This document shows positions 101 to 4,740 of a stretch of DNA of 5,181 nt, piece by piece; within the stretch, counting starts at the first letter, position 1; each line of letters opens with the position of its first letter. The notes beneath the pieces are model-generated. The model was not told the origin of the DNA and made no database searches. It saw only the letters and a program-made list of their open reading frames with translations. A program made the translations under genes and the position numbers. Source of the stretch: a virus. The stretch is from the UHGV virus genome UHGV-0386881. One strand, 5' to 3'.

Positions 101-2008
101 ATGCCAAATCTAACTAAGTATTCACTTGACCACGAGGTTCGGTCAAGTTTCGAAATGGGTCAACTCATCCCATTTTTGTGCCAAGAGGTTGTACCAGGCG
201 ATAAGTATCGCGTACAATCTAGTACGTTGGTACGTCTTCAGCCTATGTTATCTCCGCTGATGCATAGACTTGATTACTTCCAGAGGTACTATTATGTGCC
301 TTATAGGTTGCTTATACCTAATTATGAGCAATTATTGACTGATCCTGATAGCGGTAATACTGTGCCAGGTATGGATAAGTATTTACAATATACTTCTAAT
401 ACCTTTAAGGATTTGTTCATCGAGAAACCTTTGCTGGAGTATTTCGGTCTTGCTACTGCTAATGGTGATAAGAATCCCGCTAGTGTGATTAAGGATCTTA
501 ATGCGACTCCCCTACTTGCTTACTACCTTATATATAATCATTATTATATGAGGTCAGATCTTGATAGTCGGTATGTTGACCAGCTCCGTCCCGAGAATTT
601 TACGAGTGCCGAGATACGTAAATATATCGGTAATGTGATGCATGTTAATGAGGGTCTTGATTACTTCACTAGCGCGAAAACCTCTACTCAGTACGGCAAT
701 ATGGTGCAGTTGGATATGGATGGTAATAATACTATTACTGTTCCCGAGATGCGTCTCGCAGAGCGTTTGCAGTCTTTCCGCGAGCGTCTTTTGCGTGTTG
801 GTGGTAAGTACGTGAATTATATTAAGGAGTTTTTCGGTGTCGAACCGCTTGACGCTAGAGTTCAAATACCTAAATATCTTGGTGGTGACTCTTACGTGCT
901 TAATGTCTCAGATGTAGATCAGACTGCCCCCTCTGAACTCGGAGCCGTTGGTGAGTCTTATGGTAAATCTGTGTCGGTTAATCGTACCGGTCAGATTGAA
1001 TATGATGTGTACGAGCATGGTTTGATCATTGGTCTTCATTTTGTTCGTCCACGCCCATCTAATATTGGTGGTTGTCCTAAGCTATTTACTCGTAGGACTT
1101 ACTTCGATTTCTTTAATCCTCATTTCTCAGCTTTGGGTTATCAAGAGATAGAAGATCGCGAACTTGATGTTACACGTTCTAAAGATAGTGTTTTTGGATA
1201 TGTCCCGAGGTATGACGAGTATCGCTCTGGTAATGATATAGTGTCAGGTGATTTCCGCCGATCGCTTAATTATTGGCACATGTCTAGAGACATTAGTAAG
1301 GAGAAGTTATCAGTTGACTTTGTCGAATGCCGTCCAGATAATCGTATATTTTCTTTTGCTGAACAGTCTTTGTCATTGTATTGGTTTAGTGGATTTGCGA
1401 CTAATATTCGGTATCTTGGTAAGCCATTTCCTGATTCTGTTGGTGTGACTGGATATGTTTGGGCACCTGATGGTTTTAATCCGAAAGGTGATTTATTTCA
1501 CGCTGTTGTTAAATTAGGCTTTGATATTGATTCTGTTCCGTGCTCTTATGATTTGTCTATCGCTTCAGTTACTAAGTTTTCTCATGGTGCTGGCCGTCAT
1601 GTTAAATTTGAGGATGTTGCTTATTCCGATGAACCTGCTGGCATTGGTAATACTTGGGTTTCTATTATGAGTTCCTCTCATGATAAACCGCAAGGTATTC
1701 TTATTGATGATCTTGAACCAGCATTTACGGCGTTCAAGGATGGTAAACCGATCGAAGATGCTCGTTTGTCTGAGATTTCTACGCTTACTCGTAAAGGTGT
1801 TTCTTATCCGTTTATCATTGATATTTCATCAATGAAGATGGTTTCTAATACTATTCAGATTGGTTTTGGCTTGCCTGGTTGGAAGTTTGTTCGGCTTGTT
1901 AGTCGTGTTTTAGATAAGCCCGTAGACAATCATGTATTGTCAGTGACTTATAATAATGTTGATGTTCTTCGGCCTTTGGCTCGTTATGATGGTAACGTTT
2001 TAAGATGA
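101..2008 (+). CDS. Microviridae major capsid protein VP1 (F-like jelly-roll capsid protein), 635 aa
   Basis: This is the longest ORF in the window. The N-terminus 'SLDHEVRSSFEMGQLIPFLCQEVVPGDKY' matches the conserved VP1 N-terminal signature of gokusho/alpa-type microviruses (pattern ...F..G.L.P....EVLPGD.). A size above 600 aa is typical of VP1 with large insertion loops. VP2 and Rep follow in the gene order expected for Microviridae. Third-codon positions are T/A-rich, consistent with the rest of the genome. Confidence 0.9.
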   Translation: MPNLTKYSLDHEVRSSFEMGQLIPFLCQEVVPGDKYRVQSSTLVRLQPMLSPLMHRLDYFQRYYYVPYRLLIPNYEQLLTDPDSGNTVPGMDKYLQYTSNTFKDLFIEKPLLEYFGLATANGDKNPASVIKDLNATPLLAYYLIYNHYYMRSDLDSRYVDQLRPENFTSAEIRKYIGNVMHVNEGLDYFTSAKTSTQYGNMVQLDMDGNNTITVPEMRLAERLQSFRERLLRVGGKYVNYIKEFFGVEPLDARVQIPKYLGGDSYVLNVSDVDQTAPSELGAVGESYGKSVSVNRTGQIEYDVYEHGLIIGLHFVRPRPSNIGGCPKLFTRRTYFDFFNPHFSALGYQEIEDRELDVTRSKDSVFGYVPRYDEYRSGNDIVSGDFRRSLNYWHMSRDISKEKLSVDFVECRPDNRIFSFAEQSLSLYWFSGFATNIRYLGKPFPDSVGVTGYVWAPDGFNPKGDLFHAVVKLGFDIDSVPCSYDLSIASVTKFSHGAGRHVKFEDVAYSDEPAGIGNTWVSIMSSSHDKPQGILIDDLEPAFTAFKDGKPIEDARLSEISTLTRKGVSYPFIIDISSMKMVSNTIQIGFGLPGWKFVRLVSRVLDKPVDNHVLSVTYNNVDVLRPLARYDGNVLR

Positions 2009-2015
2009 TAGAGTT

Positions 2016-3047
2016 ATGCCTCCATTTTTGCCCGCTTTAATTGGTGCTGGTGCGTCTCTTGTTGGTGGTCTTATTAACAATGAGTATGCCCAAGCTAGAA
2101 CCGATGAACAATGGGATAGAATGAATTATATGCAGGATAAAATGAACGCATATAATGCGCCCGTTGCTCAGATGGCTCGACTCCGAGAAGCTGGATTGAA
2201 CCCTAATCTTGTGTATGCTAATGGCGGTGCTGTTATGCAGTCCGCTGTTGGTAATGCTCCACAACCTCCGCATACTGCTCCGATTGATACTCAGGGAGTG
2301 TTACAGATGGTGCAGACGATTGTCGGTGCAATGCTTGAAAAGGATAAGATTCAAGCTCAGAAAGATGTTACTGAGATGCAGACTCAGTCTAGTGAGAAGA
2401 TTGCAGAAGGTCATGATACTACTCAGAAAGAGGTTACAGGCATACAGACTCAGTCTAGTGAGAAGATTGCAGAAGGTCATAACACTACTCAGAAAGAGGT
2501 TACAGGTATGCAGACTCAGTCTAATGAGAAGATTGCTTCTGCTAATCGTAAAGAGAATGCTCGTCAGTTTGATTTGTCTTTTGAACAGCAAAAGCGTGTC
2601 GATGCTATGCGTTTGTCTATTGATCGGAGTCTAGCTAATTCTCAAATAGCTTTGCATTCCTCTCAAATTGAGATTAATAATTTGTCAGCTAATTTGTCTC
2701 GTCAACTTCAGCCTTTTTTGGTTGATAAGGCTAGACTTGATGCTTTATCCTCTCAGTTTTCTTTGAGTAATGAAAAGTTAGAGACTTTTCTTTCTCGTCC
2801 GTATGAGATTTCAGTTACTGACTTAGAGAACGCTTATAAAGATGCAGGTTTATCTGTTCCTAGTGCTTTTGGATTGTCTCAAATGGTAGATTATCATAAT
2901 GAGGCTGTTAGATCTTGGAATCAAGAGGTTAAAACTAACACAAAAAAGCTTTCTGATGATGAGTTTTATTCTGGTTGGATGCATCTTTGGAATGCTATTT
3001 CTGCTCCTACTCAGATGGCTGCTTCTTTGATTTTGAAGAAGAAGTAG
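2016..3047 (+). CDS. Microviridae minor capsid / DNA pilot protein VP2 (H-like), 343 aa
   Basis: The ORF starts 8 nt after the VP1 stop. It has a Gly/Ala-rich hydrophobic N-terminus (PALIGAGASLVGGLI) followed by 'MNAYNAPVAQMARLREAGLNPNLVY' (nt ~2145-2210). This is the highly conserved VP2/pilot-protein motif (...Q..V.D...AGLNP.L). The central and C-terminal parts are Q/S/E/K-rich and predicted helical or coiled-coil, as expected for a tube-forming pilot protein. Confidence 0.85.
   Translation: MPPFLPALIGAGASLVGGLINNEYAQARTDEQWDRMNYMQDKMNAYNAPVAQMARLREAGLNPNLVYANGGAVMQSAVGNAPQPPHTAPIDTQGVLQMVQTIVGAMLEKDKIQAQKDVTEMQTQSSEKIAEGHDTTQKEVTGIQTQSSEKIAEGHNTTQKEVTGMQTQSNEKIASANRKENARQFDLSFEQQKRVDAMRLSIDRSLANSQIALHSSQIEINNLSANLSRQLQPFLVDKARLDALSSQFSLSNEKLETFLSRPYEISVTDLENAYKDAGLSVPSAFGLSQMVDYHNEAVRSWNQEVKTNTKKLSDDEFYSGWMHLWNAISAPTQMAASLILKKK
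2361..2536 (+). repeat. In-frame 66-nt tandem repeat (about 2.7 copies) inside VP2, encoding 22-aa units KDVTEMQTQSSEKIAEGHDTTQ / KEVTGIQTQSSEKIAEGHNTTQ / KEVTGMQTQSNEKIA...
   Basis: Direct reading gives 2361-2426, 2427-2492 and a partial unit 2493-~2536. Units 1 and 2 differ at only ~6 of 66 nt. Identity breaks down after 'gagaagattgc' in unit 3. The repeat keeps the VP2 reading frame. Confidence 0.9.
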
Positions 3048-3079
3048 TATATTTGCCTTGTACTAATCAATCTAAGTGT

Positions 3080-3220
3080 ATGAATATATTTATCAACTAT
3101 GTTCTTTATCCCTTGTTGGTGATATTTTGGTTCCTTGTATTCGTATGGCTTGTTTTGCTTCTTGCAAGGTCTATATGTCGTATTATTAAACAATTTCGCA
3201 ATGGAAAAGAGAAGTTATAA
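3080..3220 (+). CDS. Hypothetical small single-pass membrane protein (46 aa: MNIFINYVLYPLLVIFWFLVFVWLVLLLARSICRIIKQFRNGKEKL). It is a candidate lysis or holin-like protein.
   Basis: This is the internal ATG of the 2975-3220 track ORF and lies 33 nt after the VP2 stop. It has a short N-terminus, a ~23-residue hydrophobic helix, then a basic C-terminal tail. Its stop overlaps the start of the next ORF (3201) by 20 nt, a compact phage-like arrangement. The ORF is short and composition-driven, so coding status is uncertain. Confidence 0.35.
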   Translation: MNIFINYVLYPLLVIFWFLVFVWLVLLLARSICRIIKQFRNGKEKL

Positions 3221-3500
3221 GTATGTGGCTAGAGAGCCACAGAGTGTAGTGTCTGATACTTTGCCAAATCAGACTGTTGACCTTAAGATCCTAGTCAAAC
3301 AATTAATGGATGGCCAGGCTCTTAATGTTGGATTATCATTGTCTGAGGACACTTCGGATACTTTAGATACTCCAGATATTACTAAGTATGATTTCCGTCA
3401 TATGACTGTATCTGATGTAGATAATCTATTGTCTAAGGTTCAGCCTGTGAAAATTGATCCTGCGCCAGCTGAGACCGGTACGGCTCCCGTAGCCGATTGA
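3201..3500 (+). CDS. Hypothetical acidic protein, 99 aa from ATG 3201 (the track ORF starts at 3135 in the same frame). It is possibly a scaffolding/VP3-like or other accessory virion protein.
   Basis: The ORF is on the + strand between VP2 and the intergenic region. The N-terminal 22 codons of the 3135 version (MYSYGLFCFLQGLYVVLLNNFA) look like out-of-frame readthrough of the preceding TM ORF. ATG 3201 (MEKRSYKYVAREPQ...) is therefore preferred. The C-terminal half is acidic and S/T/D-rich (SEDTSDTLDTPDITKYDF...). I recognise no specific family from sequence alone. Confidence 0.5.
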   Translation: MEKRSYKYVAREPQSVVSDTLPNQTVDLKILVKQLMDGQALNVGLSLSEDTSDTLDTPDITKYDFRHMTVSDVDNLLSKVQPVKIDPAPAETGTAPVAD

Positions 3501-3507
3501 TATTAAT

Positions 3508-3609
3508 GGGTGCGGGGGCTGATGGCTTGTCCATTGCCCCCCCTCACCTCTTTTGAGGTGGGGGGCAATGGCTTTGCCGAATAAGTCCTTCGGACCGCCC
3601 CCCCGCCCG
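3508..3609. repeat. ~100-bp GC-rich imperfect palindrome (cruciform/hairpin element) with homopolymer runs G5, C7, G6 and C7, flanked by TTAAT on both sides
   Basis: The left arm is attaatgggtgcgggggctgatggcttgtccattgccccccc. The reverse complement of the right arm is attaacgggcgggggggcggtccgaagg...caaagccattgcccccc. The inner core, ccattgcccccc(c)tcacctc-tttt-gaggtggggggcaatgg (3531-3570), forms a near-perfect ~17-bp stem with a TTTT loop. Outer arms pair with two T/C differences that would be G-U wobbles in RNA. GC content is well above 60%, in a genome that is otherwise ~38% GC. TTAAT sits at 3503-3507 and at 3610-3614. Confidence 0.8.
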
Positions 3610-3723: not shown

Positions 3724-3801
3724 TGCCAAGAGCAGATAACTCTTGATAGTTAAGATTATCAAAGCCTGCTTTTGGACTAAACGTATAACCCATTCTAGTA
3801 A

Positions 3802-4740
3802 ATGCTATGTATTAATCAAATTCAAGTCTTGAACCCTAAGACGGGTAAAATTATTAAAGTACCCTGCGGTACTTGTTACGCCTGTCAATCTAACAAACGA
3901 TCTAGTTGGATGTTTCGCAATACGATAGAACTACAATACGCTGAGAGTGCGTTCTTCTGTACTCTTACATACAATGATACTGCCTTGTTAGGTCTTCCGT
4001 ATCATGCTTCATCTAACTTGCGTATGCCCTTGAAATATCACTATCAACGCTGGCTTAAGCGCTTACGTAAAGCGTTACAGCCTGCTAAAGTGAGGTATTT
4101 TCTTTGTCACGAGTATGGAGACGAGTCTCTTCGTCCTCATTATCATGTTATATTATATCTAGATCGGTCGATGTCTTTGCCAGAGATGCGTGGCTTGATA
4201 TCTGATAGTTGGATCTATGGTAATATTCAATGTGATTATGTTACTCCTGCCAGGATTCATTACCTAACTAAATACGTGACTAAACAATTTCGCAATGTCA
4301 AGGTTTCAGGTCGTTCAGTGGATTATATCTTTAATCACATTTGGGCTAATAGAGATCTTCAACATCGCTATATTGTTGAGTTCTACCTTAAGAAGTTTTC
4401 TTTTGTGGTAGCAAGTCAAGGCTTAGGTTGTCAGCTCCTGCGTGAGCCTGCTTTTATTCGCTGGTTTTGGGATCATCTCGAGCCTGGCGAGTCTTATCCT
4501 ACTTATACTATCGGAGGTCATTCCTATACGCTACCGCGTATATACTTAAAGAAGCTTGTGCCTGATATATGGCGTGAAGCTATTGCCCCCGATATATCGC
4601 CCGAGGCTTATTCAGCCCGTATATCTGAACTCGCGTCTGACGCTAATCTAACTACTAAAACGTATGTGGAAAATGCGCGCTACATACAGGACAGAATGTC
4701 CGCTTCTATCCGCGCTAATAACAAAAAATCCCCTTTGTAA
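3802..4740 (+). CDS. Microviridae replication initiation protein VP4 (HUH rolling-circle endonuclease, phiX gpA-like), 312 aa
   Basis: The N-terminal 'VPCGTCYACQ' matches the Cys-rich motif typical of VP4. RCR motif I is 'FCTLTY' (nt 3955-3972). Motif II (HUH) is 'HYHVILY' (nt 4138-4158). Motif III, with two catalytic tyrosines spaced as in phiX174 gpA (YVAKYVNK), is 'YLTKYVTK' (nt 4261-4284). Confidence 0.9.
   Translation: MLCINQIQVLNPKTGKIIKVPCGTCYACQSNKRSSWMFRNTIELQYAESAFFCTLTYNDTALLGLPYHASSNLRMPLKYHYQRWLKRLRKALQPAKVRYFLCHEYGDESLRPHYHVILYLDRSMSLPEMRGLISDSWIYGNIQCDYVTPARIHYLTKYVTKQFRNVKVSGRSVDYIFNHIWANRDLQHRYIVEFYLKKFSFVVASQGLGCQLLREPAFIRWFWDHLEPGESYPTYTIGGHSYTLPRIYLKKLVPDIWREAIAPDISPEAYSARISELASDANLTTKTYVENARYIQDRMSASIRANNKKSPL

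Follow-up and report, generated by a model that had tools for sequence, protein, structure and literature searches.

A variable-number array of 11-residue units in the predicted long helix of a microvirus DNA pilot protein

Among the tailless microviruses, phiX174 is to our knowledge the only one for which the passage of DNA through a diderm envelope is understood; its pilot protein H forms a tube of ten parallel helices, about 22–25 Å wide, with a lining of amide and guanidinium side chains. The H tube is a 170 Å decamer lined by Q/N/R (PMC7354561), and H carries three hendecads at residues 151–183 (QKELTKMQLDN, QKEIAEMQNET, QKEIAGIQSAT), then a transition and eleven heptads (PMC7354561 Table 1). 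Here we describe a 66-nucleotide (nt) tandem repeat in the DNA pilot protein gene (VP2) of UHGV virus genome UHGV-0386881, a sequence of 5,181 nt that was analysed as a whole and is called the window below. The repeat is likely to be part of a variable-number hendecad array in a tube-forming helix, in which slippage or unequal recombination adds and removes units and a filter retains only whole ones within a bounded range.

VP2 resembles phiX174 H (4JPP/4JPN) in its role by annotation and gene position, in a hydrophobic N-terminus rich in Gly that precedes a very long helix (predicted for VP2), in an array that lies in register with H hendecads 1–3, and in the use of Q/N at positions 1 and 8, K/E at positions 2–3 and I/V/M/L at position 4 of the unit. 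The two proteins differ in layout: H has three hendecads, a kinked transition and eleven heptads, whereas VP2 has six hendecads (4–8 in relatives) and a 79-amino-acid (aa) helix, and no similarity was detectable outside the hendecads. The VP2 host would be a member of the Bacteroidales and the H host belongs to the Enterobacteria, and VP2 is known here from sequence and monomer prediction. In evolutionary behaviour the closest analogy, and an analogy only, is with tape measure proteins of tailed phages, in which the number of 11-amino-acid repeats varies (Belcaid, Bergeron & Poisson 2011, PMC3271669). These, too, can be viewed as helical, length-setting DNA-delivery proteins that evolve by duplication and loss of 11-residue units. 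However, they are unrelated in protein and virus realm, and W/F residues mark their units, which determine tail length as the virion assembles, whereas the VP2 units are rich in Q/K/E and would determine how long a post-attachment conduit is. The Bacteroidetes-associated BMV proviruses ('Alpavirinae'; Krupovic & Forterre 2011, PMC3091885) are similar in their mcp-VP2-...-Rep gene order, in a coiled-coil region with an N-terminal transmembrane segment (both presumed for the window's VP2), and in lacking an integrase, with integration into Bacteroidales flanked by imperfect direct repeats. In contrast, hendecad arrays and copy-number variation are not described in that work, and the window genome is ~5.2 kb compared with 6.3 kb for BMV1. 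Our search for hendecad-quantised VP2 length variation in the searchable literature found no description of it, which shows only that nothing turned up.

By position and profile match, the 343-aa open reading frame (ORF) with the repeat, encoding AQKDVTEMQTQSSEKIAEGHDT / TQKEVTGIQTQSSEKIAEGHNT / TQKEVTGMQTQSNEKIAS..., is a pilot protein (VP2/H homologue). The original prediction had named it as such, and this was borne out by its place after the Phage_F gene, by its match to PHROG 8689 'pilot protein for DNA ejection' (E 2.1e-17; further matches with the same annotation, 31272, E 2.5e-9, and 11693, E 1e-6), and by the PDB matches to the phiX174 H tube described below. The N-terminal hydrophobic segment, in which G10–G18 is almost invariant across the family (40-sequence alignment), is presumed from its sequence to be the membrane-inserting end of the protein. 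VP2/H proteins are described as characteristically having an N-terminal transmembrane segment (PMC3091885); AlphaFold2 confidence was low at aa 3–21.

At the DNA level, the copies of the repeat lie at 2356–2421, 2422–2487 (89% identical to copy 1) and 2488–2553 (76%, with similarity fading near 2536; Table 1). At least 59 of 66 matches at a fixed offset have a chance probability of ~1e-23, and the repeat is in frame with VP2 (66 nt = 22 codons). Tandem Repeats Finder (TRF) and repeat comparison agreed to within 5 nt with the coordinates 2361–2536 given previously, and with the ~90% identity. Mis-assembly could in principle produce such an array: units 1 and 2 share 36 identical nt, beyond the reach of short-k de Bruijn assemblers, and, among Logan k = 31 contigs, one had two units (P0007) and another was broken and chimeric at the array (P0027). 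However, each unit carries private single-nucleotide polymorphisms (SNPs; 5′ GTTACTGAGATG in unit 1 and 3′ CATAAC in unit 2), and the unit 1–unit 2 and unit 2–unit 3 junctions are unique within 30 nt. Three-unit arrays with the same unit-specific SNPs were found in P0001–P0006 (Logan, ENA, NCBI) and P0121 (ENA, 16.5-kb contig), the array of a provirus on a 51-kb contig (L002) differed by 1 nt in 198, and that of a metagenome contig (L103) was identical to the window's. Altogether the same arrangement was present in at least nine other assemblies, including SPAdes-type contigs from ENA/NCBI of up to 51 kb, and three units were also seen in those Logan contigs whose units diverge enough to be resolved. 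The recurrence of the array with its private SNPs in these assemblies shows that the repeat is genuine and independent of assembly, and we see next to no chance that the three units are an artefact.

A role of the repeat as DNA or in another frame (iterons, an origin, a packaging signal, an overlapping gene) was also considered. Microviruses are known for overlapping genes, and stop-free runs extend over the array in the +1 frame (2209–2634) and on the minus strand (2301–2591). Among relatives, however, the open run in the alternative frame is anything from 48 to 144 codons long, and their DNA is unrelated at this place, only the protein-level pattern being conserved. Folding of the array as single-stranded DNA was no better than that of shuffles (z +0.38), no inverted repeats were present in it, and it had no Rfam match. 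As folding, inverted repeats, Rfam and conservation of alternative-frame ORFs were all unsupportive, DNA-level explanations were rejected as very improbable.

The repeat is best read as hendecads, the 22-residue unit being 2 × 11, and the array then consists of six units, h1 to h6 (Table 1). In a sequence search of the whole PDB with VP2, the phiX174 H tube was the only credible match (4JPN, E 2.7e-4, and 4JPP, over aa 113–179), and 4JPN and 4JPP were again the top two when a 40-sequence family profile was used. With hhalign, VP2 114–155 aligned on H 150–191 (E 1.3e-4, 38% identity), which covers hendecads 1–3 plus the transition. The alignment is true to register: Q115 pairs with Q151 of H, where hendecad 1 of that protein begins (PMC7354561 Table 1). 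The profile built from 263 distinct family hendecads, [NQS]-[KE]-[EDK]-[IMVL]-[AQT]-[EDTS]-[EAM]-[QRNK]-[INTL]-x-[STE], agrees position by position with the H hendecads, e.g. QKEIAEMQNET. Position 4 is I/M/V/L in 90% of them, and positions 1 and 8 are Q/N/S/R in 65–70%, consistent with an H-type lumen lining. These sequence matches suggest that the array probably functions like the hendecad section of phiX174 H, with homology between the two.

A long central helix is indicated by AlphaFold2 (aa 108–259), by the 11-residue periodicity and by the H-tube sequence match. The proposal that the repeat lies within a long helix was thus supported by the structure prediction and by the in-register match to the tube-forming H hendecads and, as far as these tools can tell, the array sits inside the predicted helix and not in a disordered linker. 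In contrast, the heptad periodicity expected for the repeat was not found: hydrophobic power over aa 115–180 was 3.1 at a period of 3.50 residues compared with 46.2 at 3.67, and the length classes of the family are not multiples of 7 either. The structural period is 11 residues, not 7. Absence of heptads had been offered as a test that would speak against a tube; this test is misplaced, since the part of H that corresponds to the array is built of hendecads too (PMC7354561 Table 1), and the missing heptads do not count against tube formation. Fourier analysis assigned no periodicity to the 79-aa helix downstream of the array.

We next consider the array length in a family set of 120 sequences (the query and 119 homologues), measured from the invariant anchor ending ...LEKDKIQA, directly before the array, to the next anchor, RQF or RQADM. 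The anchor-to-anchor distances were 46, 57, 68, 79 or 90 aa only, all 2 mod 11, corresponding to 4 to 8 hendecads. The array-to-P262 helix segment was fixed at 79 or 82 aa in 115 of 121 sequences, with P262 nearly invariant; since this downstream helix is constant, the length variation is all in the array. On a neighbour-joining tree of the C-terminal flank, hendecad number is inferred to have changed independently at least 22 times, compared with 53 for shuffled labels, and some proteins with identical C-terminal flanks differed by one unit. A clean 33-nt presence/absence of SERNVDVTTGS distinguished two ENA assemblies (megahit k141 and SPAdes), where no long repeat that could collapse in assembly is present. 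Near-identical neighbouring units occurred in 50 of the 120 sequences and involved at least five unrelated unit types, with recurrent, independent amplification: the window's 22-mer, a second 22-mer (xKDMQSxQIxA-xKDLQTExITA), QEGMQEKSIQS (up to five copies), SERNVDVQTKS (three copies) and DAKLQTEKLEx. The variation of hendecad number between lineages is solid. It had been proposed that tube length varies with copy number; the length of the helix does differ among relatives, but the duplication in the window brought no elongation relative to the nearest of them.

QEGMQEKSIQS occurs 2 to 5 times in a row in P0116, P0107, P0109, P0104, P0105, P0106 and P0111, which have the RQADM-type C-terminus; their arrays reach 5 to 8 hendecads, the most extreme amplification in the family, as read from protein, and the exact counts may reflect assembly. 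In P0122, a distant relative of 391 aa, the post-array anchor itself is duplicated in tandem over 11 residues (ANLNENKRQFN / ATLNENKRQFD), another whole-hendecad event elsewhere in the helix. Among distant VP2s (IMG/VR, 50%-identity representatives) no strong internal repeats were found at the threshold used, and at that threshold amplified arrays are a feature of this clade.

The main rival to a selected length is neutral churn, in which the array is a tolerant low-complexity helical spacer, whole-unit steps arise by mutational bias, and copy number has no adaptive meaning; length would then be neutral within 4–8 units, and this duplication would have no length-restoring significance. In its favour, short microhomologies lie in register at hendecad boundaries (e.g. 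ACTCAGTCT, which ends h1, h3, h5 and L003 h4), many lineages amplify different units with no common sequence, 5, 6 and 7 hendecads are all common, and most of the nucleotide differences that separate units are non-synonymous (5 of the 7 that distinguish unit 1 from unit 2). On the other hand, residue classes are kept by position in the 263 distinct hendecads and match phiX174 H, which argues that the units are under protein-level constraint. Moreover, there were no off-register indels in the 120 sequences, even among diverged arrays with little DNA periodicity, and the range is bounded at 4–8, with 98 of 120 sequences at 5 or 6 hendecads. The reported defects of shortened phiX174 H proteins, and the regained length of their revertants (see below), also count against it. 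We consider neutral churn somewhat unlikely as the whole explanation; it and the favoured reading, turnover filtered to whole units, are not mutually exclusive.

With respect to the history of the duplication, part of the original prediction of a recent expansion held: the copying of h2h3 to h4h5 is recent (62 of 66 nt), whereas part of the similarity between units 1 and 2 is old paralogy. All of h1, h2 and h3 are recognisable in relatives down to 50% identity, and h1 resembles h3 even in relatives without the duplication, which means that the h1–h3 likeness behind part of the 90% identity between units 1 and 2 is old. The duplication is specific to one lineage: relatives at 93–98% identity have it, and those at 81% or lower lack it. 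The nearest of the latter, P0008–P0014 (75–81% identity), also have six hendecads, in which h3 is followed by SERNVDV..., NE[KN]I[SA]TERNKT and EKEISDANRKE. Judged against these relatives, the duplication exchanged hendecads at constant length and did not make the protein longer.

The array also coincides with a recombination boundary. The C-terminal half of VP2 (2556–3047) differs by 0–0.8% among the window, L001, L002, L003 and L103, whereas the N-terminal half diverges by 14–22% in nt among the window, L001, L002 and L003. Between the window and provirus L002, identity is 99–100% only at ~2400–3150 and 80–90% elsewhere, with a mosaic boundary near 2350–2400. The P0008/L003 array is chimeric, having h1–h3 of the window type and then h4–h6 of the P0009 type. 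It is the sharp difference between the VP2 halves, the L002 identity block and the P0008 chimera that place the array at the boundary. This one array occurs behind two different N-terminal types, and the array with its unit-specific SNPs is common to strains whose VP2 N-terminal halves differ by at least 14% in nt; because of this divergence, the array must be older than its carrier strains or have been transferred among them.

These features raise a serious alternative to simple intramolecular slippage, namely one-step unequal homologous recombination between related, non-identical genomes misaligned by two hendecads. The 6% divergence of the copies would then be parental divergence, without dating value. 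The boundary between divergent and near-identical VP2 halves, the window/L002 identity block, the one array with two N-terminal types and the chimeric P0008/L003 array all speak for it, as does the difference of 1 nt in 66 between window h4h5 and L003 h2h3. Against it, no parental pair was identified, and the h2 codon series AAC / GAC (L002) / GAT also fits divergence after duplication. We regard unequal recombination as possible, though less likely than not; the protein-level outcome is the same by either route.

Two-unit forms of this particular repeat require care. In P0007 (k = 31 Logan contig, SRR14297150), exactly one 66-nt unit is missing and the array shows no other nucleotide difference; its flanks place it beside P0004, inside the three-unit group, and on its face it is a deletion. 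The only other two-unit sequence, P0027, is again from a Logan k = 31 contig; 19 unrelated residues are fused to it immediately upstream of the array, and the ENA protein with which it clusters, P0121, has three units. In the Logan contigs with three units (P0001, P0003), extra substitutions interrupt the 36-nt identity. The two-unit forms may be collapses, because k = 31 contigs cannot resolve the 36-nt stretch common to units 1 and 2. No two-unit or four-unit forms were found in ENA, NCBI, IMG/VR or the metagenome contig collection; the 36-nt core was absent from IMG/VR, and the one contig of the metagenome collection that had it carried three units. Polymorphism of this 66-nt unit within populations is unproven. 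Short-k assemblies collapse or break at the array, and VP2 lengths taken from them need care; those from k = 31 contigs are unreliable where neighbouring units share more than 31 identical nt (P0027, P0007; L001).

Returning to the favoured reading, the repeat is an in-frame, lineage-specific duplication of two hendecads in the predicted long helix of the pilot protein. In this clade of gut microviruses, whose members occur integrated in Bacteroidales genomes, units would be gained, lost, swapped and re-amplified via slippage or unequal recombination in DNA with a 33-nt period. With whole-unit steps, both the lumen-facing polar positions 1 and 8 (Q/N/R) and the hydrophobic seam at position 4 plus 7/9 would stay in step with the rest of the helix, which is invariant. 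In the window, h2h3 would have been copied into the place of two ancestral hendecads; since the array still has six units, the event would have homogenised it or restored its length instead of extending it. The helix would form an H-like oligomeric tube whose length it sets, at ~15 Å per hendecad and ~31 Å for each 22-aa unit (taking as the scale the 170 Å that 121 residues span in H), and selection, not mutational bias alone, presumably enforces the 11-residue step.

Several points weigh against this reading. Slippage in 33-nt steps could by itself yield the 11-residue quantisation. The similarity to H is short (42–67 residues) and borderline, the hhalign probability is 54%, and coiled-coil composition can inflate similarity scores. 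Pfam PF04687 Microvir_H, a profile built on the phiX174 group, matched VP2 at E 2.4e-4 and 21.0 bits, just below the 22.7 cutoff. AlphaFold2 pLDDT (predicted local distance difference test) was 48–56 in the array and 69–79 downstream; besides this low confidence in the array, the model is monomeric and silent on a decamer. The Fourier hydrophobic-moment peak at 3.66 residues in the array is largely a consequence of the 11/22-aa repeat, and the control on phiX174 H missed the published heptads, which makes the Fourier result weak evidence. Finally, cryo-electron tomography of Ebor, a microvirus outside the Bullavirinae, showed no periplasm-spanning tube (PMC11195240), and tube formation outside the phiX174 group is for this reason not established.

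The behaviour of H length mutants provides a comparison. Roznowski and Fane are said to have found in 2016 that in-frame insertions in the phiX174 H repeats are viable and deletions defective, and that revertants duplicated neighbouring sequence, reportedly restoring wild-type length but not sequence. That reported pattern resembles the window, which has six units as its relatives do, two of them replaced by a copy of their neighbours. The order in the window lineage may have been deletion and then duplication. The systems differ in that the H mutants come from one phage, engineered or selected in the laboratory, whereas here there is natural diversity, with many independent events and 4–8 units tolerated. 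A joint reading can be formulated, in which the array is a natural, fast-evolving 'ruler' of the DNA-delivery conduit, deletions are repaired by duplication of adjacent units, and the array serves as a recombination joint. In Bacteroidales microviruses, the span of ~60 Å covered by 4–8 hendecads would be tuned to a particular host's envelope, and the N-terminal (membrane/host-contact) and C-terminal pilot modules would reassort at the array. We consider this combination speculative and rather unlikely as a whole. The clade offers sequence-level evidence that the hendecad part of the H tube is conserved far outside Enterobacteria phages. It also supplies naturally occurring alleles with 4 to 8 hendecads in backgrounds that are nearly identical, and tube length looks naturally adjustable in whole 11-residue steps.

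Table 1. Positions of the VP2 repeat, its units and other features in the window.
Feature	Position	Strand	Basis or remark
Major capsid gene VP1	101–2008		Pfam Phage_F, E 5e-54
VP2 / DNA pilot protein gene, 343 aa	2016–3047	+	Directly 3′ of major capsid gene (ORF list)
N-terminal Gly/Ala-rich hydrophobic segment, aa 3–21, PFLPALIGAGASLVGGLIN	2022–2078	+	Read from translation
Invariant anchor VLQMVQTIVGAMLEKDKIQA, directly before array	2298–2357	+	Columns V95–Q100, M106–D110, I112, A114 invariant (40-sequence alignment); left anchor for length measurements
Predicted single continuous alpha-helix, aa 108–259, presumed tube-forming	2337–2792	+	AlphaFold2 monomer, 40-sequence alignment
66-nt tandem repeat, 2.7 copies	2356–2536	+	TRF: 91% matches, no indels, score 299
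Hendecad array, aa 115–180, six 11-residue units	2358–2555	+	33-nt layout
h1 QKDVTEMQTQS	2358–2390	+	
h2 SEKIAEGHDTT	2391–2423	+	
h3 QKEVTGIQTQS	2424–2456	+	
h4 SEKIAEGHNTT	2457–2489	+	
h5 QKEVTGMQTQS	2490–2522	+	
h6 NEKIASANRKE	2523–2555	+	
Older copy, h2h3	2391–2456	+	62/66 nt identical to 2457–2522; h2, h3 in all relatives, including those without the duplication
Newer copy, h4h5	2457–2522	+	Nearest relatives have SERNVDVTTQS, NEKISTERNKT there (L003/P0008, P0009–P0014)
Small ORF	3135–3500		
Rolling-circle Rep gene	3802–4740		

The window is an essentially complete microvirus genome. The VP1-VP2-VP4 order is typical of Suborder III microviruses (PMC9239249), and the order VP1, VP2, Rep in the window fits this layout. 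Its closest GenBank records are human-associated "Microviridae sp." (81–85% nt identity, circular, ~5.1 kb), in which the second gene is labelled "DNA pilot protein". A VP2 96% identical to the window's is encoded by the L002 provirus, which on its 51-kb bacterial contig has genes for a lipid-A acyltransferase-like protein and an outer-membrane beta-barrel as neighbours, and one 78% identical was found in "Porphyromonas sp. UMGS166". From these neighbouring genes and the Porphyromonas provirus, the host is a diderm and very probably a member of the Bacteroidales, in agreement with the Bacteroidales-integrated microvirus proviruses described by Krupovic & Forterre (PMC3091885). The Porphyromonas sp. 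UMGS166 provirus was the only close one in the genome collection, which left a single host taxon to set against hendecad number. A Bacteroides-infecting microvirus, phiHBP1, is now culturable (PMC13064476); the escape mutations in its pilot protein are point changes at L84 and L90, outside any repeat.

Other features of the genome were noted. The integration junction of the proviral copies corresponds to window ~3776–3796, just upstream of the Rep start at 3802, with matching sites at L004 2511–2531 and 7697–7717 and at L002 ~5225–5245. The Porphyromonas sp. UMGS166 prophage is bounded by imperfect direct repeats, ACTAAACATWWAACTCATTCT, whose window counterpart is ACTAAACGTATAACCCATTCT. The provirus has no integrase gene, a situation reminiscent of the proposal that Bacteroidetes microviruses integrate in a dif-like, Xer-dependent manner (PMC3091885). 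In the C-terminal third of VP1 (window 1351–1950), identity to proviruses L002 and L004 falls to ~45–60%, compared with 80–90% elsewhere; the segment presumably corresponds to the hypervariable surface loops of VP1 that are known from Suborder III microviruses (PMC9239249). The small ORF downstream of VP2 had no match in Pfam or PHROG and holds a 9-nt tandem repeat, GATACTCCA × 2.4 (3357–3378, TRF score 30), which encodes a stretch rich in D/T/S/P. Between this ORF and Rep, the intergenic segment 3500–3625 is rich in G/C runs in an otherwise AT-rich genome and had no Rfam match. As single-stranded DNA it is predicted to fold into a long hairpin (−36 kcal/mol, z −6.3, none of 200 shuffles equally stable) with perfect 12-nt arms at 3531–3542 and 3560–3571, a candidate complementary-strand origin, terminator or packaging signal.

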